Below are positions 5,472 through 64,000 of a stretch of 64,000 nucleotides of DNA, piece by piece. The first letter of the stretch is position 1. Each line of letters starts with the position of its first letter. This DNA is from a virus (taxonomy: Duplodnaviria; Caudoviricetes). Below the pieces are notes generated by a model. That model did not search any database. It worked only from the letters and a program-made list of their open reading frames with translations, and was not told the origin of the DNA. The stretch spans positions 6,940 to 70,939 of the IMG/VR virus record IMGVR_UViG_3300037483_000750; one strand, given 5' to 3'. Position numbers and translations under genes: made by a program.

Positions 5472-5472
5472 C

Positions 5473-5985
5473 TCAACCTCCGTAGCCTTCTAAGCGTAGG
5501 ACGCTCTTCCAACCGCACGAGAACGCGCACGTGATCTTCTTGTCGCTCTTGCCGTCCGGTAGCAGCTCGTCACTGGGGACGACATAGGCATTCTCGCATC
5601 TCGGGCAGACTACCGTCGCCTCTCCCGCCACCATGTCCCACGTCTGCGGCTCGGGCTGGTTGCTCCGAGCGAACAGGATGACCGGCTCGGGTCCCTTCGC
5701 CTCAGCGTCCAAGCGCCGGCTCTCGATGAGATTGACGGTGGCCACGAACTGCATGTGTGGCGTCTCCTGGAATGACGCGTCCACCCAACGCTCAAGCTCC
5801 TTCTCCGTCACGTCTTCCGGGAGTTCAATGGTGGCGTAGGCCTGGAATGCCTGAGCCGACAACTTACTCAGGTCGGTCGCCTTTATGCTGCTGCCACTTT
5901 GCCGGCTGATGAGTGCCCGGATGACTAGGTCCCGGAAGGCTACATCGTCCAGGCTTGCCGTCACCCGCAGAAGGAACGTCTTCAT
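5473..5985 (-). CDS. Hypothetical protein with C-terminal Zn ribbon
   Basis: CPRC...CAFSC motif; ATGA overlap with the upstream gene. Confidence 0.6.
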   Translation of the reverse strand: MKTFLLRVTASLDDVAFRDLVIRALISRQSGSSIKATDLSKLSAQAFQAYATIELPEDVTEKELERWVDASFQETPHMQFVATVNLIESRRLDAEAKGPEPVILFARSNQPEPQTWDMVAGEATVVCPRCENAYVVPSDELLPDGKSDKKITCAFSCGWKSVLRLEGYGG

Positions 5986-6197
5986 GACAATTCTCCCGCC
6001 AAGAAAGCCGCTAGTTCCGGGTCGTATCGGCCTGTTGCTGGCCCAATCTTTGTCACCGCTAGGTTGATGCGGGCCTGCTGGTCCTGGTTGCTGTAGTCGC
6101 CCGTCCCTGGACCCTGGTTGGCATTGGGTTTCGACGTCCTGACAACCGTAGCCCAAGGGTCATACACACCACCGCCCGTCCCTTCGATGACAGACAT
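5982..6197 (-). CDS. Small hypothetical protein
   Basis: Tightly packed in the operon. Confidence 0.5.
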   Translation of the reverse strand: MSVIEGTGGGVYDPWATVVRTSKPNANQGPGTGDYSNQDQQARINLAVTKIGPATGRYDPELAAFLAGELS

Positions 6198-6198
6198 T

Positions 6199-7125
6199 CT
6201 ATACCCCTGCCGATGCCCGTTTCAGGACCAAGTCTGCGAATTCGCTCTTGCTCGGGCGGATGGTCAATTGGTTTCCTATCGTACTGCGCTCGACGATTCT
6301 CGTCTTCGTCGGGTCCTGCACAAAGCTGGTGAATACGGTTGGGTCGGCCGGCGAATAGCCGTGGGCCTGTACCCACCGGTCCACCCGCACTTCGTTGGGA
6401 GGCACGTCCACGCCGTTGTTGTCCCGCATGTTGGCCATGGGCTCCCAAAAGTCTGTGTAGTACTCGACGGCCCTCACCCGGGCTGCCGGTGCTGGCTTCA
6501 CTGGTACCGCGATAATCCCCCAGTTGGTGTCCGCTCCAGAACTGGACCAAGACATGGTCACCGTGGTCGCCCCGGCCTCATACGACATGCCACCGAAGGT
6601 GTTGTTCCGCCCGATGCCCGTATCGCAGACTCCGCTGTTTATCAGTGTCTGCCCAGCGCCTGGCGATGGTCCCACTGGGTTGTTAGTCCCCATGATGTCG
6701 ACGACGACCTGGCTGCTCTCCGAAGTAACATTCACTGTTGGAGTGCCACCGTTCCCACTGGCCTTCGCTTGCGTCCCGAATGGCGACGCGACATCGACGC
6801 CTGTAACGCCTACGGCGACTGCCGCTCCCGATCTAGCTCCTGCCCAGGAGATAGATACGGTGTTCGAACCAGAGGGGGGGGAGATGAGATAGTACAGACG
6901 CACTCGGACATCGCATCCAGCCGCGCCTCCCTGATAAATCGTGTCGAGTGATGTCATCGCCTGGCCGCCGTAGGTCACAGCACTCGGCGTGTTGTCTCCG
7001 CAGACCGTGACTCCAAGAAGCAAGATGCGATTTGGCGTGTCCACAGTCGTGTGCGCGAAGGACCATGGGTTTGCGCTGCAGGTTGTGAAGAGCGTATCGT
7101 TTGTGGTGTCGACGACAACCGCCAT
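6199..7125 (-). CDS. Tail tip / receptor-binding structural protein
   Basis: Gly/Ser/Thr-rich beta-type sequence located after the baseplate genes. Confidence 0.55.
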   Translation of the reverse strand: MAVVVDTTNDTLFTTCSANPWSFAHTTVDTPNRILLLGVTVCGDNTPSAVTYGGQAMTSLDTIYQGGAAGCDVRVRLYYLISPPSGSNTVSISWAGARSGAAVAVGVTGVDVASPFGTQAKASGNGGTPTVNVTSESSQVVVDIMGTNNPVGPSPGAGQTLINSGVCDTGIGRNNTFGGMSYEAGATTVTMSWSSSGADTNWGIIAVPVKPAPAARVRAVEYYTDFWEPMANMRDNNGVDVPPNEVRVDRWVQAHGYSPADPTVFTSFVQDPTKTRIVERSTIGNQLTIRPSKSEFADLVLKRASAGV

Positions 7126-7994
7126 CAGACAACCACCCTCTCCGGCGCTGCTTGCCGGTAATAGAACTTCCGGCCAGCCTCCATGCCAGCGACGTACAGG
7201 AGGAAGTTCGAATCTCCTAGGTCGCAGATACTCTCAATCATCTCGCCGGCTCGTCTGTCGGCATCTAGCTCCCGTGTCACGGGTGTGGCGTTGGCCTGTA
7301 TCGTGCTTGAAGCCACAAATTGACCGACGGCTGTGACGATGGTGCTCACCAGCGAGCTCGCTCCGACTGTGCCAGTCAGGGCCGTCTGGTTGTAGGTCCT
7401 CCATCCGAGTGTGTGCCACCAGCCGAGGCACGAAAAGACCAACCTGGCTCTCTCAAACGCGTCCGCCCCGAAGTTGAGTCCCTCCAGCTCCGGGGTCGGC
7501 CAGAACACCTGCTGAAGGTGTGTATTCGCCTTCTGAGCTGCCTCGGCTGCTCCGAGCTGTCCACCGTTGATGACCCCTTCCTTGATGCCGAACCTGGACT
7601 GACTTAAGGTGCTGTTGTAGACCGTCGACCGCGTCACCGAGCCGCCACCGATAGGCTGGTAACGGGTCCAGACTTTGTTCTCCATCCGGTCTAGCCAATT
7701 GGCCGTCTTAGCACTCCCTCGGTCGATGGTTATCCGGTTGATGAACCCTTCCCAATCGACATTGCTCTTGTCGTTGTAGACATGGAGCTGCCGGCCGGGT
7801 CCGTTGTTGAGATAGTCGATGGCTAGTTCTCTGTTGTCCGTCTCGAGCACGAAGCTGGCTGAATAGAAGCCGCCCATGTCACGGTCGACGAGCTTCAAGC
7901 TGTCTTCGAGGAGGTTCCTGACCGGTATCTCCTGGTGGAAGGATTCCCAGGAGGTGACGGGGTTCTCGCTGATGACGACGCTGGCGCTGCCCAT
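7125..7994 (-). CDS. Baseplate hub / Tal-like tail protein
   Basis: Second gene after the tape measure; sequence style fits hub proteins. Synteny-based call. Confidence 0.55.
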   Translation of the reverse strand: MGSASVVISENPVTSWESFHQEIPVRNLLEDSLKLVDRDMGGFYSASFVLETDNRELAIDYLNNGPGRQLHVYNDKSNVDWEGFINRITIDRGSAKTANWLDRMENKVWTRYQPIGGGSVTRSTVYNSTLSQSRFGIKEGVINGGQLGAAEAAQKANTHLQQVFWPTPELEGLNFGADAFERARLVFSCLGWWHTLGWRTYNQTALTGTVGASSLVSTIVTAVGQFVASSTIQANATPVTRELDADRRAGEMIESICDLGDSNFLLYVAGMEAGRKFYYRQAAPERVVV

Positions 7995-10004
7995 CTAGTC
8001 GTCGCCGCGCATCCAGAGGTATTGGGGGTGCAGGTAGAGAGCCATCTGGAGGAGCATCCCGGGCTCACTGAAGAATGGCACCAGTCCGAAGGTCGCCCCG
8101 ATGTAGTGGGCCGCTACAAAGTAGATGCGGTTCTCAACCCCCTGCCGCAGCTTGAGCTGGTCGCTCTTTCGGCTCCAGGTCTCTGCAATCACCCACTGGC
8201 TACCGCTCCAGATGCGCTTGATGGTCCTGTCCATCACCAAGCCGTTGTCGTCCTCGAGCTTCGTGCCTCCCCGAAGGGCCGAGGCTCCCGTCGTAGCGTC
8301 CGAAATCGGGTCGTCGTACTGAAGAATGGATTCGTCGGCTGGCAACAGAATGATGTCGTAGAGACGCAAGGTAGCGGCCCCTGTCGTCCGCTCAGCTCGC
8401 ACCTCGAACAAGACCTCTCCGCTGGACATCAGGTCATAGAGGTCCTGGTAGCCAGCGAACGGCAGTTGCAGATAGCCTCCTGGCGTCAGGTCGATAAGCT
8501 CTATCCCAAGGTCATGCGCGGCCAAGGCCACGACCGGTTTGGTCAGTTGTGGTGAGCCGGCCGCATTGCTGTGGATGTAGACCCGCAGCGAGACTCTGGT
8601 TTCCCCGTTCCCGCCGCCAATCTGCTGGGCCCGCAGGAATACTCGGTACTGTCCCCGGTAGGTGTGGAGCTTGTTGGTCCCGGTCAGCGTTGCTCTCGCC
8701 ACCATCGTGCTGTCGGTGCCGAAAGTCACATTCATCCGGTCGCCCCCGGGCGCTGTCGGGTCGGCCGTGATGGTCGCATCTGTCCCGGCCGCCACAGCCC
8801 ATCCAGTCGGCAGCGCATCCCCAAGGTTGAGGAAAGCGTTGAAATCGGTCAGGTCCCGGCTACGAACCCCGGCGAAGACAGCGGATGTCAGGCCCATTGC
8901 TGGTGTCGTCCCCCCGCCCGCGCCTGGACGAAACTCCGCTAGCGCGTAGGGTGGTCCGTCCCCCTTCACGCTGGCTGCCGGAATACGCACCTCGCCCGAG
9001 CGCACAGTGAACACAGTCTTTGTCCCGTTCTGTGGTGTGGTCGTGTGGCTCGTGAAGGCCGAGATACGAACCCGAACCCAAAACTTGTTCTGAGCGTTGA
9101 TGGTCGTCTTGGCCCAATCGCTCTTGGCTTTCCAGGCGAAAGCCCATCGCCCGACCTGCTTGAAGGGCGTGCTGTCCGGGAATAGTGTGTAATCGGTGCC
9201 GGCCGTGAGTACCGTGTTCCAGTTGGCTCCGTTCCAGTACTCCCACGTCTCCGTCCAGCTGTAGACGCCCGCCACCGTGATCTGTCCTGCGATGGCGAAA
9301 AAGGGCTCATCAGCTCCGAAATAGACGATGTCATTGACCGCCGGCGTCGAGCCGCTCACCGAGAACAGAGAGAAGCTCGCCGTTGCCACGAAGTTCGTGC
9401 TGAAGGCAGCTAGGCTGTCGTCAAAGCAGTAGATGTGCGTGAGCGCGGCGTTGGTCTGCTCGTGGTTCACCAGGAAATGCGCGTTAGCGACGTCTTCGTC
9501 CTCGGTGAACCTGTCATCGAACAGTACGGCGCTAGGGAGGACGCCCGGCTCGTTCGCACGCCATGAAAACCGAGCCAGCGTCATTCCGCTTTCAATGAGC
9601 GCCTGAGCCTCGACCGCCGTGTCGAAAAGGGGGTTTGGTAGCGCCAGCTCGGGCGAATGGTCCACCAGCGCCCATCGCTCTCCAGTTTCGTTGGTCGCCT
9701 TGGCATGGAGAATGACCGGTGTCCGCTGAGGGAAGAAACCGCCTCCGTATGCCCAAGCCGATTCCAACAGCCGGATGAGTCTCCTGACCGAAGCGTTCAG
9801 CTCATCGGTGCAAGGCTCCTTAGCGATGATACGGTAACGCTCAACGAACAGCTCATCCGTCTGTAGGGCCCGTCTCCGCAGCTGGTGAGGTTGCAGGTTC
9901 ATTACCTGGCCAGCATCCCGTCCACCGGTCAAGGCTCCCCCGGGCTCGACCCTCGCTAGGTCTAGCCGTTCGTCCCCGAAAAGAAGTTCGAAGGTCCGGC
10001 GCAT
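7995..10004 (-). CDS. Distal tail (Dit)-like protein with inserted beta-sandwich domains
   Basis: First gene after the tape measure; aromatic WEYWNGANW...FWVRVRI insertion suggests a carbohydrate-binding module. Confidence 0.55.
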   Translation of the reverse strand: MRRTFELLFGDERLDLARVEPGGALTGGRDAGQVMNLQPHQLRRRALQTDELFVERYRIIAKEPCTDELNASVRRLIRLLESAWAYGGGFFPQRTPVILHAKATNETGERWALVDHSPELALPNPLFDTAVEAQALIESGMTLARFSWRANEPGVLPSAVLFDDRFTEDEDVANAHFLVNHEQTNAALTHIYCFDDSLAAFSTNFVATASFSLFSVSGSTPAVNDIVYFGADEPFFAIAGQITVAGVYSWTETWEYWNGANWNTVLTAGTDYTLFPDSTPFKQVGRWAFAWKAKSDWAKTTINAQNKFWVRVRISAFTSHTTTPQNGTKTVFTVRSGEVRIPAASVKGDGPPYALAEFRPGAGGGTTPAMGLTSAVFAGVRSRDLTDFNAFLNLGDALPTGWAVAAGTDATITADPTAPGGDRMNVTFGTDSTMVARATLTGTNKLHTYRGQYRVFLRAQQIGGGNGETRVSLRVYIHSNAAGSPQLTKPVVALAAHDLGIELIDLTPGGYLQLPFAGYQDLYDLMSSGEVLFEVRAERTTGAATLRLYDIILLPADESILQYDDPISDATTGASALRGGTKLEDDNGLVMDRTIKRIWSGSQWVIAETWSRKSDQLKLRQGVENRIYFVAAHYIGATFGLVPFFSEPGMLLQMALYLHPQYLWMRGDD

Positions 10005-12056
10005 CTATGCCCCCAACCAGTCCCGCATCGCCAGGTCGAACGCCTGGGAAGAGATGCGGTCTCGGTTGACCACAGTCCCGATGCTCACATTCCGGCTGTT
10101 GTCGGTTGTACCTCCCAAGCCAGCCCCGCCCGGCGGCATCGTCGTCGGCGGTACATTCATCGTTGGTAGTCGCACGTTGTCGAGCGCCCGGTTGATTCCG
10201 CGGATGCCCAGCTCGAATTCCGTTGGGCTCCCCGGGATGAGCCAGTCAGGAATGGCGTCCTCGATCTGCTGGGCTAGGCTGCTGACCTTCTGGATAATCC
10301 CGTTGATGACGCTACTGATAGCGTTGCGGATGCGGTCGAAGACCGTCACCACAATCAGCCGTGCCATCTCGAAGTTGTTGCGCCAGGTGGCGATGAAGCT
10401 GTCCAGGTTGACGCCCACGATGCCGGCCGCCGCGTTGAAGAAGCCGACGAACGTCTGTTTCATCGCCTCCCAGGCTCCGGCCCAATCCCCATTCAGAATA
10501 GCCAGGGCCGTGTTGATGATGCCCGTGATGGCCACGAACGCTGCGGTGATCGTCCCGGCGATGAAGGTGAAAATGAACCCCACCACTGCCATGACCTCGT
10601 CCCCGTGGGCCTGCCATTCGATGGCAAGCTCCTGGAACAGCCCGCCGAGGCCCTCGATGATGCCCTTCACATTCTCACTGACCACGGTCAGCGCGGGCAA
10701 GATGGTCGCATTCCAAAAATCGGCGAAGCCCTGCAGCTGGGCCTCGGCCTCCGGCCTCTTTTCCCCGAACGCCGAGAACAGTGCCGTCACTCCGTCGATG
10801 AGAGGCTGAAAGGTCGTCCTGGCTTCCTCGAGTGCTCCCGGCAGTGTCTCCCGAAGCCAGTTCACGACCTCCCTGCCCTTGTCGATAATCCCGACGATGG
10901 TGTCCGTCACGGTTCCGATGACACCCAGGATGCCTTCGGCCGACGGCTTGAACCCGAGCGCCTCGGCCAATAGCTGCAGGGACGCCCACAGTTCCGTCAT
11001 GGCGTCGACGACCTTGTCGGCATTCTCCCCCAGCACCGGGCCGAGCAAGCCGATGAAGTCCTGAATGCCGTCCAGCACCGGCTGCATGAAATCCGCCAGT
11101 CGCTCGAGCACCGGGATGAGCGCGTTGCCGATGGCCTCGGTCGAATCGAGCAGGTGCTCCTTCATGATCTGCATCCGCCCGCCGAAGGTCTTGGCGGCTC
11201 GGGCGGCCGTTCCACCAATCGTTCCGGTGAGTGCATCGAGCAGGAACTTCTGCGCGCCAGCGACGTCGCCGGTTTCAACCATCCGGTCGATCATGTCCTT
11301 CTGCTGGTCGGTCAAGACGATTCCGGCAGCCTTCAGGGCCCGTAGCCCTTCTCCCGGAACCTCGAGTGCCCGACCCAGCATCCCCGCCGCTGTGGCCGCA
11401 TCCGTTCCCAATGCCGCGGCTAGGTCGAGTGTGACCTGGAGCGCCGGCTCGAATGCCTTCCCGCGTAGCTGGGAGAACCGGAGGAGTACCGTCTCCGCCG
11501 AGAGTACTGCCTCGTCGCTACCTCCGGCCAGGTCCTTGTACTGTTCGGACAAGCGGATGGCCTCTTCGCGCGTGACCCCCATAATGGCCCCGACCGCCGC
11601 GGTCGCCTTCTCTAGGTTGCCTTCCTGCCAGGCCAACAGGAACGCTTTCCGTTCGTCTTCCGAGAGCTCCGTTCCGAGCGCCGCGAGCGCGTCCTGCAAA
11701 TTCCCCTGCCGCCAAGCCAAGGTGAAGGACTGGTTCGAGGTAGCGTCCATGGTCGTCCCGACGGCCGCCAAGGTGGCGTCGAGCTTCGCCATGACCTCTT
11801 CGTGCTGTAGGGCCTCTCGAATTCCGATCGCTGTGGCCGCCGCCAATCCGGTGGCCGCCGCCGCGACTGCTGCGACGGCCGCGGCGATACCAGCCGTTGC
11901 GATGGTCCCGCCTACTGCGACGGCCGCCCCACCGAGGCCCCCCAGGAGGCCGCCCGTGTGTTGGGCAGCCGACCCCATCTTCCCAAGGTCCGTTAGATAT
12001 TTGCTGAGGCCCTTGACGATGGCCTCGACGCCCATCGGCGTGAATGCACCTGCCAC
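10005..12056 (-). CDS. Tail tape measure protein
   Basis: 683 aa, Ala/Gly-rich helical sequence with spaced Trp/Phe repeats in the C-half; follows the chaperone genes. Confidence 0.9.
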   Translation of the reverse strand: MAGAFTPMGVEAIVKGLSKYLTDLGKMGSAAQHTGGLLGGLGGAAVAVGGTIATAGIAAAVAAVAAAATGLAAATAIGIREALQHEEVMAKLDATLAAVGTTMDATSNQSFTLAWRQGNLQDALAALGTELSEDERKAFLLAWQEGNLEKATAAVGAIMGVTREEAIRLSEQYKDLAGGSDEAVLSAETVLLRFSQLRGKAFEPALQVTLDLAAALGTDAATAAGMLGRALEVPGEGLRALKAAGIVLTDQQKDMIDRMVETGDVAGAQKFLLDALTGTIGGTAARAAKTFGGRMQIMKEHLLDSTEAIGNALIPVLERLADFMQPVLDGIQDFIGLLGPVLGENADKVVDAMTELWASLQLLAEALGFKPSAEGILGVIGTVTDTIVGIIDKGREVVNWLRETLPGALEEARTTFQPLIDGVTALFSAFGEKRPEAEAQLQGFADFWNATILPALTVVSENVKGIIEGLGGLFQELAIEWQAHGDEVMAVVGFIFTFIAGTITAAFVAITGIINTALAILNGDWAGAWEAMKQTFVGFFNAAAGIVGVNLDSFIATWRNNFEMARLIVVTVFDRIRNAISSVINGIIQKVSSLAQQIEDAIPDWLIPGSPTEFELGIRGINRALDNVRLPTMNVPPTTMPPGGAGLGGTTDNSRNVSIGTVVNRDRISSQAFDLAMRDWLGA

Positions 12057-43249: not shown

Positions 43250-43871
43250 TCAAGTCCTTTATCTCAGTATTCGCCCCGAGATGAAAGCGCTTGAGGAACT
43301 TCGCGTTGGCTATCCGTTCCTGTGCAATAGCGTAGTAACGAGGGTCTATCTCAACCCCAATGAAGTTCCTCCCCGTCTGTACACAGGCAACCCCGGTCGT
43401 CCCAGCTCCCATGAAAGGGTCCAGAACTGTGACATCCTGTGGAAGCATGCCTAGCACCCAAACCATCAGAGCAAGAGGCTTTTGAGTAGGATGGACCTTT
43501 TCTTCACCCGACCAATGATGCTGCAGAATCCGAACCCGTGGAGAGAAGTCAGTCCATGCCAGCTCGGCTTCCGAGAATGAAACGCCCCGTATCTTCTTGT
43601 CCCATATCAGCCAGCAAGCACTCGGCGGTAGCTGGTCCGAGAAGTAGTTAGCTCCCCAAATACAGTGATATCGACCAATGCCCAACCACGGCTTGAGCGA
43701 AGGCTGTTCGTCATCCCAATCACCTCGGATGAAGTCCTTCTTCCCATCGCCGAGTGTCATTGACGGGGCTCCTATCCCATAGGGAGGGTCAGTGACCACG
43801 GCCTCCACCTGTCTCGCCATCAACTCGGGCAGTAAGGCACCGCAGTCCCCCAAGAAAAGCTCGACTGTCAT
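43203..43871 (-). CDS. N4/N6 DNA methyltransferase (beta class)
   Basis: TDPPY, HPTQKP and VLDPFMGAGTT motifs. Confidence 0.93.
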   Translation of the reverse strand: MTVELFLGDCGALLPELMARQVEAVVTDPPYGIGAPSMTLGDGKKDFIRGDWDDEQPSLKPWLGIGRYHCIWGANYFSDQLPPSACWLIWDKKIRGVSFSEAELAWTDFSPRVRILQHHWSGEEKVHPTQKPLALMVWVLGMLPQDVTVLDPFMGAGTTGVACVQTGRNFIGVEIDPRYYAIAQERIANAKFLKRFHLGANTEIKDLSARVARMAREAGYKA

Positions 43872-44662
43872 CCCGGCTGCCCCTCGCGAAGGAACCTCGG
43901 TCGGATGTCTTCATCGTCGTCGTCCATGGCGGTCCCGTCATCGGGAGCCTCAGGGGGTGACTCTATCCCGGCCGCAAGCTCCCATCGTTTGAGATAAAGC
44001 TCCCCATCCAGCTGGGCATACTTGCTGTCCTGACGCTGAACATTCCTTTCTCCAAACGTCAGTGCTGTCAGACCGCGTTCAAAAGTGTTCTCATCCTTGA
44101 AGCTGACAAAGACAACCGCCACAACAAAGGCCTTGGGGTCAGTACTCGGTGGGGTCTCCGGCGTTCCAGATGGAGGTTCGAAGGGCACCGTGTCCGGACC
44201 AACAATAGCCACTAGACGATTGAGGTCTTCGGCATCGAAGCCCGTGCCCGCCAGTCCTTCCGCTGCCTTGCCCCCGGCCAGCTCGATCAGCGTCTTGACT
44301 AGCGCCGGCTCGTTCCATCCGCCGAGCTCGACCAGCCTGTTTAGTGCGATGCCGACGGCGGTCTCTTCTTCCTCCGGGACGTCGATATAGTCGACCGGCA
44401 CCATCCAATCCTCCCCGTCTTGCTCAATGCCCGATGGTCTCTGCCGGCCTCCTACCCTCAGACTTTCCAACGCGTCCAATCGCCCATGGCCCGCGACCAT
44501 CCTGTCGGTTCGCCTGTTGATGATGACCCTCTCTACGAAGCCAAACCTCTGCAAACTCTCCACGATTCCGCTGAGGTGGTGGTCCTTGGGGTTGACCAAC
44601 GCCCTCTTGAGGCTGCCCAAACGTCGCCACTCGCTCGCTGGCATACTTTCCATCTCGGCCAT
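43868..44662 (-). CDS. ParB/Srx N-terminal-domain protein coupled to the methyltransferase
   Basis: NPKDH...SLQRFGF...MVAGHGRL; ATGA overlap with the methyltransferase. Confidence 0.8.
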   Translation of the reverse strand: MAEMESMPASEWRRLGSLKRALVNPKDHHLSGIVESLQRFGFVERVIINRRTDRMVAGHGRLDALESLRVGGRQRPSGIEQDGEDWMVPVDYIDVPEEEETAVGIALNRLVELGGWNEPALVKTLIELAGGKAAEGLAGTGFDAEDLNRLVAIVGPDTVPFEPPSGTPETPPSTDPKAFVVAVVFVSFKDENTFERGLTALTFGERNVQRQDSKYAQLDGELYLKRWELAAGIESPPEAPDDGTAMDDDDEDIRPRFLREGQPG

Positions 44663-45641: not shown

Positions 45642-46313
45642 TCAAGGGGCTGGCTGGAAAGTTAGCTTCTCGTTCCGCCGTATTGTCTGCCACAGGGTAC
45701 GAGCGTCAAATCTAACGGCGATTGCCTTCCACGCGCTCCCCTGTTGCCTCTGGCCTATCAGCCAATCCGCCAATTCGGCCATCCTCTCAGACATTCCGGC
45801 CGGTCCGTACTTCATGTGCACCGGAACATTCCCAGCAAGGTATCTGTCAAGCGCGCGGATGACGAGGAAAGTATTGAGCGAGGCTCCTGCTTCGCTGAAG
45901 GCGTTAAGCCTCTCACGGCCGAAGATGGTCTCATACCGCTCAAGCATCCGGCGTTGCCTGGGAGCGACGGCGTCCGGAGCTAGGAGATAAACCTGGAGAA
46001 CCTCCTGGCCGCTCGGGCGACGAGTGATGAACTGACGGCGATATACCTCTCCAAGAGTCAGCCCCTCTATCACGACGCACGGAACAGTCTCTAGTCCCGC
46101 TATCGTCGCCGCCGTCCACCTCCGATGACCATCGGCCACCTGGTAATGGCCGCCCCCCACCGGTACGACCATAAGCGGCGACAGGACACCAACCTTCTTG
46201 ATGTCAGCCACCAGTTCCGCCATGGTTGTAGCCTGTTTCGCATAACGGCTGACGGGATTGAAGCTCGAACCCTTGAGTTTCCGGGTGTCCACGGACAGGA
46301 ACCTAAGTGTCAT
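45642..46313 (-). CDS. ParB/Srx-domain protein (moron-like)
   Basis: FNP...LVADIKKVGVLSPLMV....YQVADGHRRW; AGGAGG RBS; lower GC. Confidence 0.8.
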   Translation of the reverse strand: MTLRFLSVDTRKLKGSSFNPVSRYAKQATTMAELVADIKKVGVLSPLMVVPVGGGHYQVADGHRRWTAATIAGLETVPCVVIEGLTLGEVYRRQFITRRPSGQEVLQVYLLAPDAVAPRQRRMLERYETIFGRERLNAFSEAGASLNTFLVIRALDRYLAGNVPVHMKYGPAGMSERMAELADWLIGQRQQGSAWKAIAVRFDARTLWQTIRRNEKLTFQPAP

Positions 46314-46361
46314 AGGGCAACTGGCCTCCTTCTTGAGTGGTCGAGATGACTGGCAAACCTG

Positions 46362-46390
46362 ACTGTAAGCTATTCGTTGGTCCTTGTCAA
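46362..46390 (-). promoter_or_regulatory. Sigma70-type promoter
   Basis: TTGACA (46390-46385), 17-nt spacer, TACAGT (46367-46362). Confidence 0.75.
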
Positions 46391-46406
46391 CTGCCCATGC
46401 CTGTCC

Positions 46407-46454
46407 GGGAACGCGAAAAGACCCGCCGGGCTCGGGCCCCGGCGGGTCTTTTCG
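46407..46454. terminator. Bidirectional terminator
   Basis: 17-bp perfect stem CGAAAAGACCCGCCGGG/CCCGGCGGGTCTTTTCG. Confidence 0.85.
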
Positions 46455-46544
46455 TACCTCTCCCCTGTCTCGGACTTTCAGGTTCACCCGCCGCGGCGGG
46501 TTGCCTTGCGCCGAGCACCAGCTCGTGCGGACGCCTCAGGGAAG

Positions 46545-47089: not shown

Positions 47090-47400
47090 ACCACGACCAC
47101 CCCGGAGAAGTCCACGCTCGTCACCCGCACCTTTCCGACTGGCGGGGCGAAGCCTTCCTGGTCGACCGCCCGCTGGAGCAATCTCAGGCCCCTCTTGGCC
47201 GCCTGCTCAACGGTCCCGGCCGCCACACAGATTGTCCGCTGCCGGTCGTAGCCCGACAGGCGGAACGTGCCGACCACATTCCAGGTCTGGTATCGTTTCA
47301 TCGCCTTATCCTCCCTCGTTCCCCGATGGTGCGGAGAACCTTGGCCTGCTGTAGCTAGAGCAAGCATCCGGATGTTACTTTCGCGAGACCACTTCTTCAT
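47086..47400 (-). CDS. Hypothetical protein
   Basis: Overlaps on both sides. Confidence 0.45.
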   Translation of the reverse strand: MKKWSRESNIRMLALATAGQGSPHHRGTREDKAMKRYQTWNVVGTFRLSGYDRQRTICVAAGTVEQAAKRGLRLLQRAVDQEGFAPPVGKVRVTSVDFSGVVVV

Positions 47401-48188
47401 CCGTCCGCCCTCAATGCCAGGACAAATCTCGCCTGCGAGTACCAAGGCACATTGGGCGTGCTCCGGTCGCCGAGGGGCCGACCGCAGAACACCACCAGCA
47501 GAAACCTGTCCCCACTCAGGACACTGTCAAAGTAGGCGGCCGGGTACAGGCTCGAAACGTAGGCGGGCACATCCATCCAGCTCTGCTCGAGGCCATCGAC
47601 CTCTTCCGGTGTCAATCTCGCGGCGGCCGTCAGCGTCGCCGCTTGGGTCGTTCCGCCTTCGGTCACCGCCGCCGGCTCTCCGATGAGCCCCCCCACCATT
47701 CCGCCGACCATGTCGCTGGGCCTGACTTCGCTGTAGGGACCCAGCTCAAAGGCGTTTCGCATCTCGGTGAACGCCATCCCCCCGCCGGCGTGAACCCACA
47801 CCACCGTCCGACCCTGGCGGTCCTCGTAGGCGATGCCGATGTCGTCGTCCAGCAGACCGTCCTTCCCGATGCCGGGATACCACCGTATGACGAACAGGGG
47901 TTCCATCTCCAGCACCGTTCCGGGCGTCTCGGGGTCCGGCATGGAGAAGTCCATCCACGTTCCCTTGGCCGCCAGGCGCAAACTGCCGAAGTGCAGGTCA
48001 GGGTCCGGAACGGGCGTCGGCTCGCGTGTCGGCTCCGGTGTGCCTGGGCCAACTGTCGGCAGGACCTGCGTCGGGATTGCCTTGGGTGGCGGGCCAGGCG
48101 CGAACAGGAATGCCGGAAGCGCCGGCGGCGGGGGTTCCGCCACCGCCAGCATGAAGCCGAACCAGAGAAGGACGATGGTCTGCTTCAT
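47397..48188 (-). CDS. Putative sortase-fold secreted protein
   Basis: Signal sequence and Pro-rich linker, then His (VWVHAG....F), Cys (LLVVFCG) and Arg (ARFVL) in sortase order. Confidence 0.5.
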   Translation of the reverse strand: MKQTIVLLWFGFMLAVAEPPPPALPAFLFAPGPPPKAIPTQVLPTVGPGTPEPTREPTPVPDPDLHFGSLRLAAKGTWMDFSMPDPETPGTVLEMEPLFVIRWYPGIGKDGLLDDDIGIAYEDRQGRTVVWVHAGGGMAFTEMRNAFELGPYSEVRPSDMVGGMVGGLIGEPAAVTEGGTTQAATLTAAARLTPEEVDGLEQSWMDVPAYVSSLYPAAYFDSVLSGDRFLLVVFCGRPLGDRSTPNVPWYSQARFVLALRADG

Positions 48189-48904
48189 TCCTCGGGCTTT
48201 GCCCAGGCTCCTGTGTAGCGGTCCCGGAACTCCTTCATCACCTCGACGCCCAGCGGCCCCACCCGTACGTATCCTTCCCTGGCTGGCGGCAGTTCGCCAT
48301 CTACCAGTATCGGAGCTTCAGGGGTTGCCTCTGGCTCTGGTAGCGGCGGCGGCACCGCCCTGCGGAGCCTCTCAGCGATTGCCTTGCTCCGCACGAGAGA
48401 TTCCGCTGGCTCCAACTCGTGGTGGTTCTCCGGCTGGGTCGCCACCTTCAGCAAGGCGTTCAGCTGTCGTTGGTCTGCGATCAGTTCGACCAGCTTCGTC
48501 CGGCCATGTTGCAGAACTTCCAGGCTCCCCTGCGGTGTGTAGCGCCTCCACCGCCAAAGGAATTCCCGGATGGCCCGGCGTAGCGGCGCTTCGAAATGCA
48601 GCCAAACCAAGGCCTCGAAGACATCCATCCCTCCGCCCTTCTCCCTGCGCTCGAGGTAAATCTGGTTGACGTGCGCGTACCACGCGCTCGGTGGGTCAAT
48701 CCAGTTGTAAAGGACGACCGCGGCCCTCTCGGTCTTCACCAGTTGCGCCTGGATGTCCCGGTTCAACGATGTCACCCTGAGCTCCCGGCCAGCGAGCACC
48801 TCCCGGTAGACCTTCAAGAGGGCTCCCGTCTCAGCCTGGAGGCTCTCGCTGGTCTTCTTCTCGAACCGAACCTGCAGCCAAAATTGCTGACGTCGCTCCA
48901 TCAT
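48185..48904 (-). CDS. Hypothetical helical protein
   Basis: ATGA overlap with the TadE-like stop; GGAGG upstream. Confidence 0.55.
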   Translation of the reverse strand: MMERRQQFWLQVRFEKKTSESLQAETGALLKVYREVLAGRELRVTSLNRDIQAQLVKTERAAVVLYNWIDPPSAWYAHVNQIYLERREKGGGMDVFEALVWLHFEAPLRRAIREFLWRWRRYTPQGSLEVLQHGRTKLVELIADQRQLNALLKVATQPENHHELEPAESLVRSKAIAERLRRAVPPPLPEPEATPEAPILVDGELPPAREGYVRVGPLGVEVMKEFRDRYTGAWAKPEE

Positions 48905-49323
48905 CGGTACTGGTCCTCCGTCGAAACGCTCATCGGCCAGGGGGTTGTCGTGTCCTTCGGTGGCCACCCGAATCCCCCCCAAAAGAGCGGGGTGTACATG
49001 AGATTGATGGTCACTTCGAGTGGCGTCCGCACTGGGATGGTGGTCTGAGGGGACCAATCGCAGATGTCCGGGATGGCCACCGTGTAGGTCGCGCTGAATA
49101 GCTCCGTCGTTCCGATGGCGTTCAGCACGTCTCCTCGACAAGTCCTGGTCCCATCCGGCTTGTAGATGGCGGCCGCCCTGGCTCCCTTGGCCGACAGCAG
49201 CTTCGCCCCCATCCAGTCGAACAGGAATGGCCCGAGGTCGATCATCCCGAGCACGATGACAATCATGACGATCATCGGCAGGACAAACTCCACCATGCCC
49301 TGGCCGCGCTCGCTGGTCTTCAC
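48901..49323 (-). CDS. TadE-like minor pilin
   Basis: Prepilin motif ERGQGMVEFVL, hydrophobic helix, then AKGARAAAI. Confidence 0.88.
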   Translation of the reverse strand: MKTSERGQGMVEFVLPMIVMIVIVLGMIDLGPFLFDWMGAKLLSAKGARAAAIYKPDGTRTCRGDVLNAIGTTELFSATYTVAIPDICDWSPQTTIPVRTPLEVTINLMYTPLFWGGFGWPPKDTTTPWPMSVSTEDQYR

Positions 49324-49676
49324 AGTGCCCCCAGCGATGCACCGATGGCCAGCATCCCGACGAGGATGAGGATGACGGCGAAGGCCACGAACAGCAGGCC
49401 CTTCCACTCCCGCACGTCTGCCTTCAGGTCGATGATCTGGCGCTCGAGCGCGTCCATCTCGTCGGCCTCCGTGTTTTCGGCCCCGTCCACCGTTCCCTCG
49501 AGTATCCTTCTGCGCTCGGCCAAGGCGGCCGCGAGAGCATCCCACGGGCGGGGCATCAGCTGGAGCAGGTCGAAGAAGTGGGCCTCAGCAGCGGCCAACT
49601 GGAGCTGCTGCATCCGCTCGGCGGTCATAGGCGGAACCGGCTCACTCAGGTAACTCAGGTCTTCTCGAATCGGCAT
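49320..49676 (-). CDS. Coiled-coil protein with C-terminal TM
   Basis: GGAGG RBS; GTGA overlap with the TadE-like gene. Confidence 0.6.
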   Translation of the reverse strand: MPIREDLSYLSEPVPPMTAERMQQLQLAAAEAHFFDLLQLMPRPWDALAAALAERRRILEGTVDGAENTEADEMDALERQIIDLKADVREWKGLLFVAFAVILILVGMLAIGASLGAL

Positions 49677-49692
49677 TTGTGGCCTCCTTCGT

Positions 49693-50700
49693 TCAGGGCG
49701 TGCCGTACCAATCCCACGGCACAACGCGGCTCGTGTAGCCCTCGATGTCCTCGGGGCTGTCGTATGGGCCTCCTACGAACTTCGCCCACAGCGTGTTGGG
49801 TTCAATCTCCGTGATCTCCGCCAGCGCGTAGTAGATGATCTCGACGTTGTCCCAATTGCCATACCCCGGGTCTGGCTTGTAGAGTTCTCCCGGGTAGACC
49901 AGCACAATCAGCCGGTCGCCCACGTCGTACCGCTCGTCCGCTGTCTGCACCAGGAAGTTGTTGCTCACCCCCGAAACCGCTGGCAGGTGCATCCCGATGG
50001 GTGGGAGGACCATGCCTGCTGTTCCCAGGATGGTCTCCTGAACGAGGTCCTTGAGCGAGTTGCTGCTGGGCGAATCGGTCAGCGGTTCGAAGAAGACCGG
50101 GGCTGAGCAGTTGCTGTCCGGGATGCCGGCGCTGTCGACGCACCAAATGTGGAGCAACACGGCCCCGCCGTAGTCGTTCCCGGTGTAAGTAACCGCCGCC
50201 GCTCCCTGACCGACGATGGGGAAAGCCTCGTCCGGAAACTGCTGGAGACCACGCATGACCCATGGCTCCTGCACCGCGAAGGGAGAGAGGTCGATGGTCC
50301 GATACTCGCAACGGGTGCGAACGGCGATGCTCCCGCCCCTGAAGCCCAAGAACTGCGCCAAGTAGAATTCGTGCGGCCCCGATAGGCCCGCCAGGAGGGT
50401 GTTGTGGGAGCCCCATCCGATGCCCTTGATGGGGAACTGGTCTGCCCCAAGCGTGTAGGGTTCATAGTATTCCGTCGGTTCCCCGTTGGCCTGGAGACTG
50501 GCTGCGAATAGCGCCGCTGGCGACAGCCCTGCGATGGGCCCCATGGCCGCCGCCTCGCAGGCTGCGTCGATGTCCTCCGTGAGCCTGGCGTAGTGCCCGA
50601 TGTACATCCCCCCATCCGACACCAGCGACAGTATCGCCAGCAGTGCCAGCAGTACACCGATGAATAGGACTAGGCTCTGGCCTCGCTCTCTGTTCCTCAT
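49693..50700 (-). CDS. TadG-like minor pilin
   Basis: ERGQSLVLF + TM + SDGG....ARL..DIDAACEAAA (Tad N-terminal motif). Confidence 0.85.
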   Translation of the reverse strand: MRNRERGQSLVLFIGVLLALLAILSLVSDGGMYIGHYARLTEDIDAACEAAAMGPIAGLSPAALFAASLQANGEPTEYYEPYTLGADQFPIKGIGWGSHNTLLAGLSGPHEFYLAQFLGFRGGSIAVRTRCEYRTIDLSPFAVQEPWVMRGLQQFPDEAFPIVGQGAAAVTYTGNDYGGAVLLHIWCVDSAGIPDSNCSAPVFFEPLTDSPSSNSLKDLVQETILGTAGMVLPPIGMHLPAVSGVSNNFLVQTADERYDVGDRLIVLVYPGELYKPDPGYGNWDNVEIIYYALAEITEIEPNTLWAKFVGGPYDSPEDIEGYTSRVVPWDWYGTP

Positions 50701-51362
50701 GCCTTCTCCTTTCCTGGTTCTTTAGAGTTTCCGAGTGTCTGCGTCGAAGCCTCAGCCGATTCGGTCTGGACTTCATTCCCTGTCGGAACGGGCCGCGAGA
50801 GCGCCTTCGTTGCGATGGCCTTCATGTCCTCAATGGTGTTTGAAGCGTGTGTCAGCGGGTCTCGGGAGAAACGCCCCTCGCCCTTAGAGATTTGCTCCAG
50901 AGCCAACCGCAACTTCGCCACCTCGGCCTTCCAGGCCACCACGGTCTTCCGGGCGTCGGAGGCCGACACAAGTTCAACAACATCCCCGGCGCTGTAGCCC
51001 AGCACCGAAGCTCCAGGGCGGCTACTTGTTGCACCATCTGGCGGCTCCGGGGCGGCCAACGCGGCTTCCTGCTCTTCAATCAGACGTGCCAGGTCATTCG
51101 ACAGGGCGCGCCACTCTTCGTTGGGGTCGGACGTTTTCTCTCCGCGCAAGGTCATGCCCAGACAAGCGGCAAGGCGAGCCAGCGTCTTCACCCGCTCCTG
51201 CGAGGCGGCGAGGGCCTTCCAAAGATACAGGATGGCCCGCTCCGACCGTGATTGTGGACCGCGTCCCGGCTCGAAGCCCCAACGCTTCTCGATGCCCTCG
51301 GCGTCCCAGCGAAACTCCTCCAGGGGGTTCTTGGATGGTGATGCGTCCGTCTGTTGGTTCAC
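50697..51362 (-). CDS. Hypothetical coiled-coil protein
   Basis: GGAGGGG RBS; GTGA overlap. Confidence 0.55.
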   Translation of the reverse strand: MNQQTDASPSKNPLEEFRWDAEGIEKRWGFEPGRGPQSRSERAILYLWKALAASQERVKTLARLAACLGMTLRGEKTSDPNEEWRALSNDLARLIEEQEAALAAPEPPDGATSSRPGASVLGYSAGDVVELVSASDARKTVVAWKAEVAKLRLALEQISKGEGRFSRDPLTHASNTIEDMKAIATKALSRPVPTGNEVQTESAEASTQTLGNSKEPGKEKA

Positions 51363-51565
51363 GTCCCCTCCTCCCCCGGCTCCGGGATTTCTCGCACTTG
51401 ATCGGACGTCACGAAGCAGGCGTCCGCCCCATGCCGACACGACATAAGTCGAATCTTCATCATCTTGCCGCCGCCCGAGAACGTGATCGTTTCGCCGGTC
51501 ATTTTTCCCACCTCGGGGTAATGCGGGTGGTCCGGGTCCACGATGCGAACGTAGGGATAAGTCAC
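51359..51565 (-). CDS. Small hypothetical protein
   Basis: Overlaps on both sides. Confidence 0.5.
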   Translation of the reverse strand: MTYPYVRIVDPDHPHYPEVGKMTGETITFSGGGKMMKIRLMSCRHGADACFVTSDQVREIPEPGEEGT

Positions 51566-52890
51566 CCCTGTTCCTCCCCCGGCGGCTCCGAGGCGGCTTT
51601 CAATGCCTCGTCAATGCCAGCGAGCAGCTCATCCGCAAGGTACCAGTGCATGACCCCATCCCCCCCCTCGAGCTTGTCGGGGTCCGTCCCGAGCTGCGAG
51701 CACTGAACGCTGTACAGCGCCCTCTTCTCGCTCTCGGCATAGACCTCCGCCGTCAGCGTCTTGCCGGTGCCTGGCATCCCGCACAACAGGACCACCGCAC
51801 CTCCACTCTTACCTGCGACGATGTCCTGGAATGCTCCGCCCTGTGTGTCGATGAGCAGCTTGACGAGCGCCTTCTGGTCCGCTGGCAGGATGAGCTTCTC
51901 GGCGAGCTGCTCGTCGTAGATGTATTCCTCGAGCTGGCGGACGTGCGCCTTTAGCCGCCGGTGTTTGGCTAGGTGGAAGATGACGCACCAAGGATGGATG
52001 GGAATCTCAATCTCCGGTCGCTCGAGTTCGGTGTCCTCGCTGATGGGCGAGTCGTCCTCGTCCTCCTCGCCGTCATACGCATCGCCGTTGGCCACGTTCG
52101 CCCAATACCATTCGTACACGGACACATGGCGGTCCTTTTCGGCTTCGCCTTCCCAAAAGATATCGATGACCACTCGGCTCGGGTCTCCGTCTCGGTCGAG
52201 CTGGACATCAGTTCGTCTCTCCCATCGGACGCCCTCGTGGGAGAAGGCTCGCCCCCGACCCCAATATTGTTTCCCAACGACACCGGCCACCACATCGTAG
52301 ATGGCCATGTCGGACAGGTACTGAGCCCGCAGCTCGTCATCCTCGGGCTGGTAGCCCTTGTCGGCCAGAGCAGTTGCCACCGGGATGTTCCGACAGTCCT
52401 CGGCCTCGAACGTTTCGGATGTCTGCTGTCGGCCGCCTAATTCCTCATAGACAAGCTGCATCTCCACGTAGGCTGGGTGTTTGTAGTCTCCGCGCTCGGA
52501 TGGCGGGGTGTACTCAATCTTCCTGACGTAGTAGGCCAGCAGCGCGCCTTCCTCGTGGCGCTTGTAAACCCGGTGGCCTGGCACCTTCAGGAGGTACTGC
52601 TTGAGCAGCGCTTCGAACTGGCGGACCGTCCGCGCCTTCTGCTGTGCTGCGCCCTCTTCGAGCGCCCGTCGCCAGGCCTGCACATCGTGGATGAGCACGC
52701 CCGCTCCCCGGACATTCTTGAATGTCGTCAGTAAAGCCTCGAGGTCCTCCAGGCGCTTCTTTGACAGCTTCGCCAGGTCTATCTCCTGGCTCTCCCTCCA
52801 GGTCTCCCATGACTTCCGGCTCACCCCAAACTTCTCGAGCGAGTCGTAGCCGAACTTCCTGGCGACCTCCTTCTTGATGATGAGTTTCAT
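51562..52890 (-). CDS. AAA+ ATPase-related protein, truncated after Walker A
   Basis: DIVAGKSGGAVVLLCGMPGTGKTLTAE...LYSVQCSQLG; no Walker B or sensor region before the stop. Confidence 0.75.
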   Translation of the reverse strand: MKLIIKKEVARKFGYDSLEKFGVSRKSWETWRESQEIDLAKLSKKRLEDLEALLTTFKNVRGAGVLIHDVQAWRRALEEGAAQQKARTVRQFEALLKQYLLKVPGHRVYKRHEEGALLAYYVRKIEYTPPSERGDYKHPAYVEMQLVYEELGGRQQTSETFEAEDCRNIPVATALADKGYQPEDDELRAQYLSDMAIYDVVAGVVGKQYWGRGRAFSHEGVRWERRTDVQLDRDGDPSRVVIDIFWEGEAEKDRHVSVYEWYWANVANGDAYDGEEDEDDSPISEDTELERPEIEIPIHPWCVIFHLAKHRRLKAHVRQLEEYIYDEQLAEKLILPADQKALVKLLIDTQGGAFQDIVAGKSGGAVVLLCGMPGTGKTLTAEVYAESEKRALYSVQCSQLGTDPDKLEGGDGVMHWYLADELLAGIDEALKAASEPPGEEQG

Positions 52891-53486: not shown

Positions 53487-54056
53487 TCAGTCCCGTCGGC
53501 GGAACGCGTAGGCCAGCCCGGCCAGCGCCGTCCCTGCCAGCGCCACAACCCCGGGCGCGAGGGCATCAGCGGCCCCGCCCTTCGGGGTGTCTTCCGGAGC
53601 TCCCGGCGTCGACGTCGGTTGCGGCACTTCGCTGGTGGCCGTCGGTGTGACATCCGGATCAGGCGTGTTGGTCGGCGTCGAAGTGAAGGTTGCTGTCGGA
53701 GTGTTAGTCGGCGGTGTAACGACGCCATCGCATTCCACCGCGTCGCCGTTCTTGCCGTTGTCACCCTCCACCGTAAGGAAGTCGTCTTCATGGCCGGCCG
53801 CTGGTGTTCCATCTTCATTGAAATGGCCGGCTTGACCGAACGTCGCCTCATACGGGAGTTCGAGATAGCTGAACTTGGTCGTCCCCGACTGCCCGTCGGC
53901 ATGACAGACGAAGTACTTCACGGCCACCTTCTCGACCGCTGCGGCCGGCGCGGCGAAGGCTGGCAGAACGAACGCCAGCGCCACCAGAAGCACGACAGTC
54001 ATCGCCATCAGCCCGGTCACACCGATCAGGCTCCAATCCGTTGTGTTTCGGTTCAT
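53487..54056 (-). CDS. Secreted surface protein with C-terminal sorting-signal-like tail
   Basis: Signal peptide, Cys/His domain, Thr/Pro linker, then TPKGG + hydrophobic helix + RRRD. Confidence 0.7.
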   Translation of the reverse strand: MNRNTTDWSLIGVTGLMAMTVVLLVALAFVLPAFAAPAAAVEKVAVKYFVCHADGQSGTTKFSYLELPYEATFGQAGHFNEDGTPAAGHEDDFLTVEGDNGKNGDAVECDGVVTPPTNTPTATFTSTPTNTPDPDVTPTATSEVPQPTSTPGAPEDTPKGGAADALAPGVVALAGTALAGLAYAFRRRD

Positions 54057-63580: not shown

Positions 63581-64000
63581 GTTAGGCCTCCTTGATGGGA
63601 TGATGCCCGCATCCCTGCGGCCGACCTGCGCTCGTTGTCGGTCGCAGTGCATCCGGGTATCGCTCCGGTGAGCGTTTTCGCCCAGGTCCGCCGGTCACTC
63701 GTTCGGCCGGTCGGCCTGGGCCTACGTCCCTGACGACAGCGCCAGACCGCCGTCGCACTCCAACCTGCCCGGGGGTCTCCCGTAGGGCTTACGGTCTGAA
63801 CGGAGTATCGCGATTCGGCCTCACGTCTGGCGCTTGCGTCAGGGTCCGACTTTCGTCGGGCCCTGTTGGGTTTCATCTCTGTCTCGCGGGGGGTTCGCCG
63901 GTGGGGGGTGTTCCATGGGCTCGGCCTCGTGGCCCAGCCGCCCGGCTTTCCGCTCTGGTCCTCTGCGCCTGCTGGTCCGTTCGCCTGGTTGTTTGGGGGT

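Follow-up and report, generated by a model that had tools for sequence, protein, structure and literature searches.

Tad-type minor pilin genes without pilus machinery in the genome of an uncultured phage

The described systems nearest to the genes reported here are minor pilins of type IVa and Tad pili. A FimU protein encoded by a prophage is built into type IVa pili, where it blocks phages that bind the pilus tip, and PilA-like genes are carried by virulent phages (PMC12952977). The Tad-like Kil pilus of Myxococcus xanthus has interchangeable tips formed by the TadE/F/G-like proteins KilL, KilM and KilN, which are encoded away from the pilus machine (PMC12075869), and in Caulobacter CpaL is predicted to lie with CpaJ and CpaK at the pilus tip, loss of cpaL lowering sensitivity to phage phiCbK (PMC12607857). 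In the Tad systems of Aggregatibacter (TadE, TadF and TadG) and Caulobacter, pseudopilins of the TadE type bear a G↓XXXXE(F/Y) site at which TadV cuts (PMC12607857; Tomich et al. 2006, as cited in PMC12075869). Here we describe a TadG-like and a TadE-like gene in a 64,000-nucleotide stretch of phage DNA (the window), which comprises bases 6940-70939 of the 70,939-bp IMG/VR record IMGVR_UViG_3300037483_000750 and so covers nearly the whole record. The analysis, all of it in silico, suggests that the two genes may form a pilus tip cassette that depends on the Tad machine of the host. They are separated by one small gene, and the three are:

49693..50700, minus strand: TadG-family large minor pilin (P0001, 335 amino acids (aa)), assigned from its homologues, an AF2 model and a transmembrane (TM)-like window
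49320..49676, minus strand: small tail-anchored membrane protein (P0002, 118 aa), between the TadG-like and TadE-like genes
48901..49323, minus strand: TadE-family pseudopilin (P0003, 140 aa), with a PF07811 match above the cut-off

The record is that of an uncultured phage and is classed as having direct terminal repeats (DTR); its opening 100 bases are found again at window position 63874, and it encodes a tape-measure protein. No match to a T2SSE ATPase, a T2SSF platform protein, a Peptidase_A24 prepilin peptidase or Flp_Fap is present anywhere in its 70,939 bp, and neither a regular expression nor PF04964 finds an Flp gene in it, the 7 kb beyond the window included. An earlier note on this DNA, made from the letters and open reading frames (ORFs) of the window, had reported that no Flp, TadA, TadB/C or prepilin peptidase is visible there, and this extends to the whole record. 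A six-frame regular-expression search shows that the only class-III prepilin-like N-termini in coding frames of the window are those of the TadG-like and TadE-like proteins. The phage thus carries pilus subunits only and is not the bearer of a Tad (type IVc) pilus system. The record also has no tyrosine integrase and no serine recombinase, and because it has no integrase the phage may be virulent or maintained as a plasmid.

The earlier note had quoted two prepilin motifs, ERGQSLVLF and ERGQGMVEF, and both are indeed at the N-termini of real minus-strand ORFs, and the interval that it gave (48901-50700) is bounded precisely by the stop of the TadE-like gene and the start of the TadG-like one. 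It had also named a host fragment misassembled into the contig as an alternative source of the two genes. All genes in the part of the window that holds the pilins are on the minus strand, and such misassembly, of which there is no sign, is ruled out because start and stop codons overlap across the module, the G+C content is even (0.60-0.66), and the genes are syntenic in other viral contigs.

The 335-aa protein has the N-terminus MRNRERGQSLVLF, in which a basic leader, MRNRERG, is followed by Q8 and a hydrophobic helix with a TM-like window at residues 9-27. It has no direct match in Pfam (E 0.1), NCBIfam (E 10), PHROGs or PADLOC, and its family was recognised through its relatives. A word-indexed search returned nine of these. 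The most distant, from a metagenome-assembled genome of an Anaerolineales bacterium, shares 29% identity across 91% of the length (E 1e-16); NCBI names it "pilus assembly protein TadG-related", and it matches PF13400 at 34.5 bits. The two proteins align from end to end and have C-terminal motifs in common. A set of 1.84 billion representatives, searched with a profile, contained 142 proteins at E <= 1e-10, of which 36 reached E <= 1e-30. PF13400 is matched by 27 of the 40 relatives that were aligned (best 3e-12). P0013 scores 34.5 bits against it, and the copy in the related phage L004 described below 18.9 bits, which is below the cut-off. Because its homology to PF13400-bearing proteins is full-length, the 335-aa protein is, judged by sequence, a member of the TadG-type family with a divergent N-terminus. 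The TadG-like call of the earlier note is thus borne out by the relatives, while P0001 itself scores nothing against the family model.

The AF2 model of the TadG-like protein (pLDDT 93.9, pTM 0.83) has a 47-residue N-terminal helix (residues 6-52). A beta-rich, pilin-like head comes next and extends to about residue 135, and two more domains make up the rest, as far as residue 335. Comparison of the model with the PDB and BFVD by Foldseek gave nothing at E <= 1e-3, and a profile made from the TadG alignment had 0 matches among PDB sequences. The best VIA-align hit among 48,161 chains is a PUA-like domain of the RsmE type, aligned over 70 residues at a Z of 7.1, which is within the stated noise band of the tool; the pilins GspK, PilA4 and PilB, at Z 4.3-5.8, are inside the same band and not diagnostic. 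No adhesin-type von Willebrand factor A (vWA) or lectin domain was recognised by either family or fold searches. Four Cys are invariant in the family, and the alignment shows that Glu at position +5 is never present. Subunits that start a filament, GspK for example, are without Glu5 in type II secretion systems and type IV pili, and its absence here is a lead that the TadG-like family may consist of filament-initiating subunits.

The 140-aa TadE-like protein, whose N-terminus is VKTSERGQGMVEF, matches Pfam PF07811 directly (24.6 bits, E 2.7e-5, the cut-off being 22.9; 27.9 bits, E 2.5e-7, in a six-frame search of the record), so the earlier TadE-like call stands on the protein itself. It has the class-III motif ERG↓QGMVEF with Glu at +5, followed by a TM-like window at residues 10-28, and in an alignment with six relatives G7, Q8, E12, C62 and C88 are invariant, that is, the G↓QxxxE site and two Cys. 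A profile search of PDB sequences with this alignment gave one non-significant "pilin" match (E 0.17). An extracytoplasmic location of both proteins is fitting because TadG has four invariant Cys and TadE two. PHROGs has no family for either pilin.

The pairing of the two genes is conserved. In all six loci that extend downstream of the TadG-like gene (L002/L003, L004, L005, L007 and L009 among them) a TadE-like gene comes after it. We predicted the complex of the mature parts, TadG residues 8-335 with TadE residues 8-140, and obtained a score of 0.59, against 0.00 for the best of three controls, with a contact agreement of at least 89% among runs and a partner pLDDT of at least 79. In a benchmark 58 of 80 solved complexes and 2 of 110 mismatched pairs passed the mark for a predicted complex, and with a score of 0.60 or under there are only 7 of those 80 solved complexes plus both of the passing mismatches, so the modelled interface lends weak support to a TadG-TadE complex.

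Scans of IMG/VR with four different queries found viral relatives in two other contigs only. One is an 18.8-kb fragment (L002/L003) that encodes a TadG-like protein 61% identical to ours, a TadE-like protein, an anchored secreted protein and a homologue of a 263-aa protein encoded near the pilins in the window (gene E, below). The other is L004, a 60,209-bp DTR record that CheckV gives as 100% complete, in which the anchored protein, the 263-aa homologue, a TadG-like protein (32% identity) and a TadE-like protein are encoded in a row. Neither contig has an ATPase or a prepilin peptidase. The earlier note had called for phage context in other contigs, and the same pair is found in these two, one of them complete; pilins free of machinery are present in complete phage genomes. 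Both related phages in addition encode Flp, the major pilin. The L003 protein (5678-5950) is short and has the canonical prepilin form, with MRNERG↓QGLVEY ahead of a hydrophobic tail. In L004 the Flp part makes up the last 40 residues of a 173-aa ORF (11495-12016); the match to PF04964 scores 19 bits, which is below the cut-off, and the ORF, whose true start is ambiguous, also has a TM segment at its N-terminus. Because both have Flp, this phage lineage can supply fibre subunits besides the tip. A tblastn search of 50,697 deposited phage genomes with both pilins gave no match, and two scans of cellular genome contigs for prophage relatives gave none.

Two cellular loci carry the pair as well, each with a PF07811 gene directly after the TadG-like gene and no Tad machinery in view. 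In L005 it is situated among genes for SecA, RF2, M23 peptidases and FtsEX, and in L009 it adjoins genes for a regulator, a Ser/Thr kinase and a STAS protein. These stand-alone pairs agree with the organisation of Chloroflexales, in which tadEEG, flp and rcpC-tadZABC form separate clusters (PMC7332563). We note that the L005 pair is flanked, within 4013-11429, by two M23 peptidase genes and FtsE/FtsX, one of the M23 genes having an amidase match below the cut-off; these surroundings may be due to chance or to a link with cell-wall remodelling.

A maximum-likelihood tree of 35 TadG-like members has one split with 100/100 support that separates 23 rows from 12. All three copies of known viral context are on the 23-row side and both copies of known cellular context on the 12-row side, the remaining 30 of the 35 rows being unlabelled as viral or cellular; a division into a viral-side and a cellular-side clade is suggestive at this sampling. 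Among the homologues a single one is labelled with an organism, Anaerolineales, and because this is the only such label the assignment of the phage host to Chloroflexota is tentative. In Anaerolineae Tad pili are highly transcribed and are linked to cell aggregation (PMC4877987).

The pilin module is embedded in a row of minus-strand genes, which include the following:

50697..51440, minus strand: upstream gene, 247 aa, no TM segment, no family match; its stop overlaps the TadG start in an ATGA
48185..48904, minus strand: gene D, 239 aa, basic, no TM segment; ATGA overlaps with the TadE-like gene upstream and gene E downstream
47397..48188, minus strand: gene E, exported sortase-like protein, 263 aa (alignment, AF2 and Foldseek)
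53487..54056, minus strand: secreted protein, 189 aa, candidate substrate of gene E

Four-nucleotide overlaps of start and stop codons join most genes from 51440 to 47397, the TadE-like gene starting with the GTG of a GTGA that overlaps the stop of the 118-aa gene, and the pilin genes are translationally coupled to their neighbours. The nearest strong promoter match on the same strand is at 56410-56382 (minus strand); it is sigma-70-like with 11 of 12 positions matching and an extended -10 TG, is the only strong one of its kind in 46.5-56.5 kb, and probably marks where the transcript with the pilin module begins. Since no promoter-like site is found near the module and terminator-like matches around it are at the level of chance, the module reads as part of a long early/middle transcript and not as a self-contained moron. 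The record having neither an integrase nor a promoter of the module's own, the genes point to a function at the time of infection rather than to lysogenic conversion.

The small gene between the pilins, which the earlier note had described as encoding a coiled-coil/TM protein, is preceded by an AAGGAGG ribosome-binding site, and its 118-aa product has an acidic N-terminal part and a single strongly hydrophobic segment, the C-terminal residues 93-111. It has no homologue in the related phage loci. The possibility that it is a degenerate Flp was considered and rejected; its only likeness to the L004 Flp ORF is a 24-residue hydrophobic match (pairwise E 0.043), and it has no Glu5. Gene D has neither a family match nor a homologue in the related loci.

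Gene E is a putative sortase-like enzyme. His133, Cys235 and Arg254 are invariant in four sequences and stand in the order typical of sortases, and although its AF2 model is of low confidence (pLDDT 57.6, TM 0.3-0.57), a Foldseek search of the PDB with this weak model gave 83 matches at E <= 1e-3 of which the top rows are all sortases. There is no Pfam match, and the ESM Atlas gave no usable match. The 189-aa secreted protein has a Pro/Thr-rich linker, a C-terminal hydrophobic segment and an RRRD tail, an arrangement like that of a cell-wall sorting signal, and may be a substrate of gene E. In its L002 and L004 homologues the anchor comes after PPTG- and PSTG-like motifs, the corresponding sequence in the window being TPKGG. 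The counterparts of the two genes in the related phages are:

L002 3246-4169 and L004 9226-9999: homologues of gene E, alongside the pilin pair
L002 2652-3233 and L004 8360-9229: homologues of the 189-aa protein gene, adjoining the pilin genes

Taken together the pilin pair, the sortase-like enzyme and the protein with the sorting signal point to a broader remodelling of the cell surface. In L002 the gene directly after the sortase-like one (4166-4951) encodes a lipoprotein-like secreted homologue of staphylococcal nuclease (PF00565, 49 bits) with an Excalibur-like tail.

Upstream of the module, a 442-aa protein (51562-52890, minus strand) matches the PHROG "ATP-dependent protease" at profile positions 123-388 of 548. 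Its AAA domain ends at model position 36, right after the Walker A motif, the second half of the domain is found nowhere in the record, and what is left is a truncated ATPase or else the remnant of a P-loop. The idea that the pilin module split this upstream AAA ATPase gene finds no second half in the record to match it. On the other side of the module a ParB-like gene was assigned through PHROGs (45642-46487, minus strand); a gene near it (43868-44662, minus strand) has no family match and resembles ParB by eye alone, and a DNA methylase gene and a DUF5131 gene are near these ParB-like genes.

We infer from this material how the two pilins may be processed, how they may enter pili and what the phage may gain. 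The TadG-like and TadE-like proteins would insert in the host membrane through their N-terminal class-III-type segments, and a TadV-type prepilin peptidase of the host would be expected, from the motif, to cut the TadE-like protein after Gly7, leaving Gln1 and Glu5. The large TadG-like subunit, which has no Glu5, would be the expected first subunit of the filament, and the two could form an initiation complex on the platform and ATPase of the host Tad system, with host Flp, or in the related phages perhaps phage-encoded Flp, polymerising below the tip. Infected cells would then bear Tad pili that are capped by phage subunits and, in the relatives, perhaps also built from them. The pay-off would most probably be that the changed tip escapes recognition by competing phages that bind the pilus, and a second possible pay-off is changed adhesion. 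That the two genes are such a phage-borne, host-machine-dependent Tad tip cassette, expressed during infection and most likely serving to exclude competitors, seems to us a proposition with about equal chances of being right or wrong.

Several points count against this proposal. The Tad machine of the host is an assumption; P0001 does not match PF13400 even at E 10 in a six-frame search; the TadG-TadE complex score falls in the weak band of the benchmark; and there is no promoter of its own near the module. No fold match reveals a ligand of the outer domain, the best Z being 7.1 and pilins reaching only 4.3-5.8. The outermost part of TadG, residues 233-335, is moreover the most conserved in the phage clade (63% mean pairwise identity) and the pilin head the least (49%), which speaks mildly against a receptor arms race and is the reverse of the diverse alleles reported for P-FimU, the prophage-encoded FimU.

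The same incorporation into host Tad pili could instead pay through adhesion or aggregation of the infected cell, which by staying in a floc or filament would let progeny reach neighbouring cells, the pilins acting with the sortase-like, sorting-signal and other envelope genes. The sortase-plus-substrate pair, which is syntenic with the pilins in the window, L002 and L004, the Flp of the relatives and the conserved outer domain, such as a fixed ligand would require, fit surface remodelling of this kind at least as well as they fit exclusion, and the aggregation-linked, highly transcribed Tad pili of Anaerolineae (PMC4877987) are in keeping with it. The benefit of adhesion to a short lytic infection is not evident, however, and the TadG-like protein has no recognised vWA or lectin domain of an adhesin; as the principal pay-off we judge it possible but rather unlikely. 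If, on the other hand, abundant phage minor pilins saturated the host peptidase or platform or skewed the ratio of minor to major subunits, host pili, and the receptor with them, would be lost. Minor-to-major pilin stoichiometry does govern the dynamics of type IVa pili (PMC13249403), the genes are expressed as part of a long early/middle operon, no separate promoter being found for them, the TadG-like protein is without Glu5, and the non-conserved tail-anchored 118-aa protein could act on the cytoplasmic side. Mere jamming, however, would not need two subunits that are intact, conserved together and apparently disulfide-bonded, with a folded outer part of 280 residues, and Flp in the relatives suggests that a filament is built and not blocked, so that we consider such dominant-negative action unlikely.

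A role outside pili would reduce the TadE/G-type N-termini to membrane anchors, with the extracytoplasmic domains working on the cell wall, in lysis or in egress. It would accord with the outer fold that has no identified match, with the M23 peptidase, amidase and FtsEX genes around the cellular L005 pair, and with the lack of a Tad machine near any homologue whose locus was viewed; but stand-alone tadE/tadG clusters are normal in Tad-piliated Chloroflexota (PMC7332563), the TadE family keeps its G↓QxxxE processing motif without exception, and canonical Flp pilins are part of the same modules in two relatives, all of which make this role quite improbable. The tip cassette proposal also has a wider form, in which old and diversified phages of uncultured monoderm-type hosts, probably Chloroflexota, routinely hijack the host Tad machine and specify a filament with its own tip, often its own Flp and its own sortase-displayed protein. 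This form, which holds only if most of the 23 viral-side clusters are phage genes, is a long shot; if it were true, we would be looking at a cell appendage designed by viruses and not at one swapped subunit. Of the picture in the earlier note, a phage that swaps or poisons the host pilus tip and so gains superinfection exclusion or altered adhesion, the families, the phage context and the absent machinery are supported, while the swapping or poisoning and the pay-off are proposals, and the Flp genes of the relatives, the conserved outer TadG domain and the sortase-like companion have shifted the picture.

Our literature search found no paper on phage-encoded Tad minor pilins. That a phage can replace a host pilus subunit was first shown in 2026, for the type IVa pilus of Pseudomonas alone, and the demonstration of interchangeable Tad tips dates from 2025 and is confined to chromosomal paralogues; the present locus joins both ideas as a putative Tad tip cassette on a phage, found in at least two complete phage genomes. 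If confirmed, it would extend subunit replacement to the most widespread class of pilus and to virulent-looking phages of uncultured bacteria, and would allow environmental phages that depend on Tad pili, or compete for them, to be predicted from sequence.

Among cellular systems the closest in family are the tadE-tadE-tadG cluster of Chloroflexales (PMC7332563) and the L005 and L009 pairs, which are likewise detached from machinery, the two pairs having the same order, TadG then TadE, as the phage; the cellular clade is nevertheless set apart from that of the viral copies by the 100/100 branch, and P0001 is 29% identical to the nearest named cellular protein. The phage TadG-like protein is like TadG and CpaL in being a large pilin-like protein with a predicted tip position, and the TadE type of processing site is common to both; CpaL has a vWA domain, whereas the phage protein has no recognisable one, and tadE/F/G of Aggregatibacter and cpaJ/K/L of Caulobacter are in or near cellular tad loci, which the phage pair is not. 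The Kil tips have a large TadG-like backbone subunit with a C-terminal module of unknown fold, any of them priming the same pilus (PMC12075869), but they are trimers encoded by chromosomal paralogues, and the cassette here is dimer-sized and on a phage genome. P-FimU of the F10-like phages of P. aeruginosa (Sztanko et al. 2026, PMC12952977) is alike in being a phage pilin subunit without a pilus machine, and this genomic premise of subunit replacement is present in our phage as well. P-FimU, however, is a single type IVa subunit of temperate phages with highly diverse alleles, whereas the locus described here, known from its genes alone, is of the Tad (type IVc) kind, has two subunits (with Flp in the relatives), a conserved outer domain and an uncultured host, and comes from a record with no integrase. 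The principle is already known from P-FimU; what appears to be new is its likely extension to Tad tip genes carried by phages.

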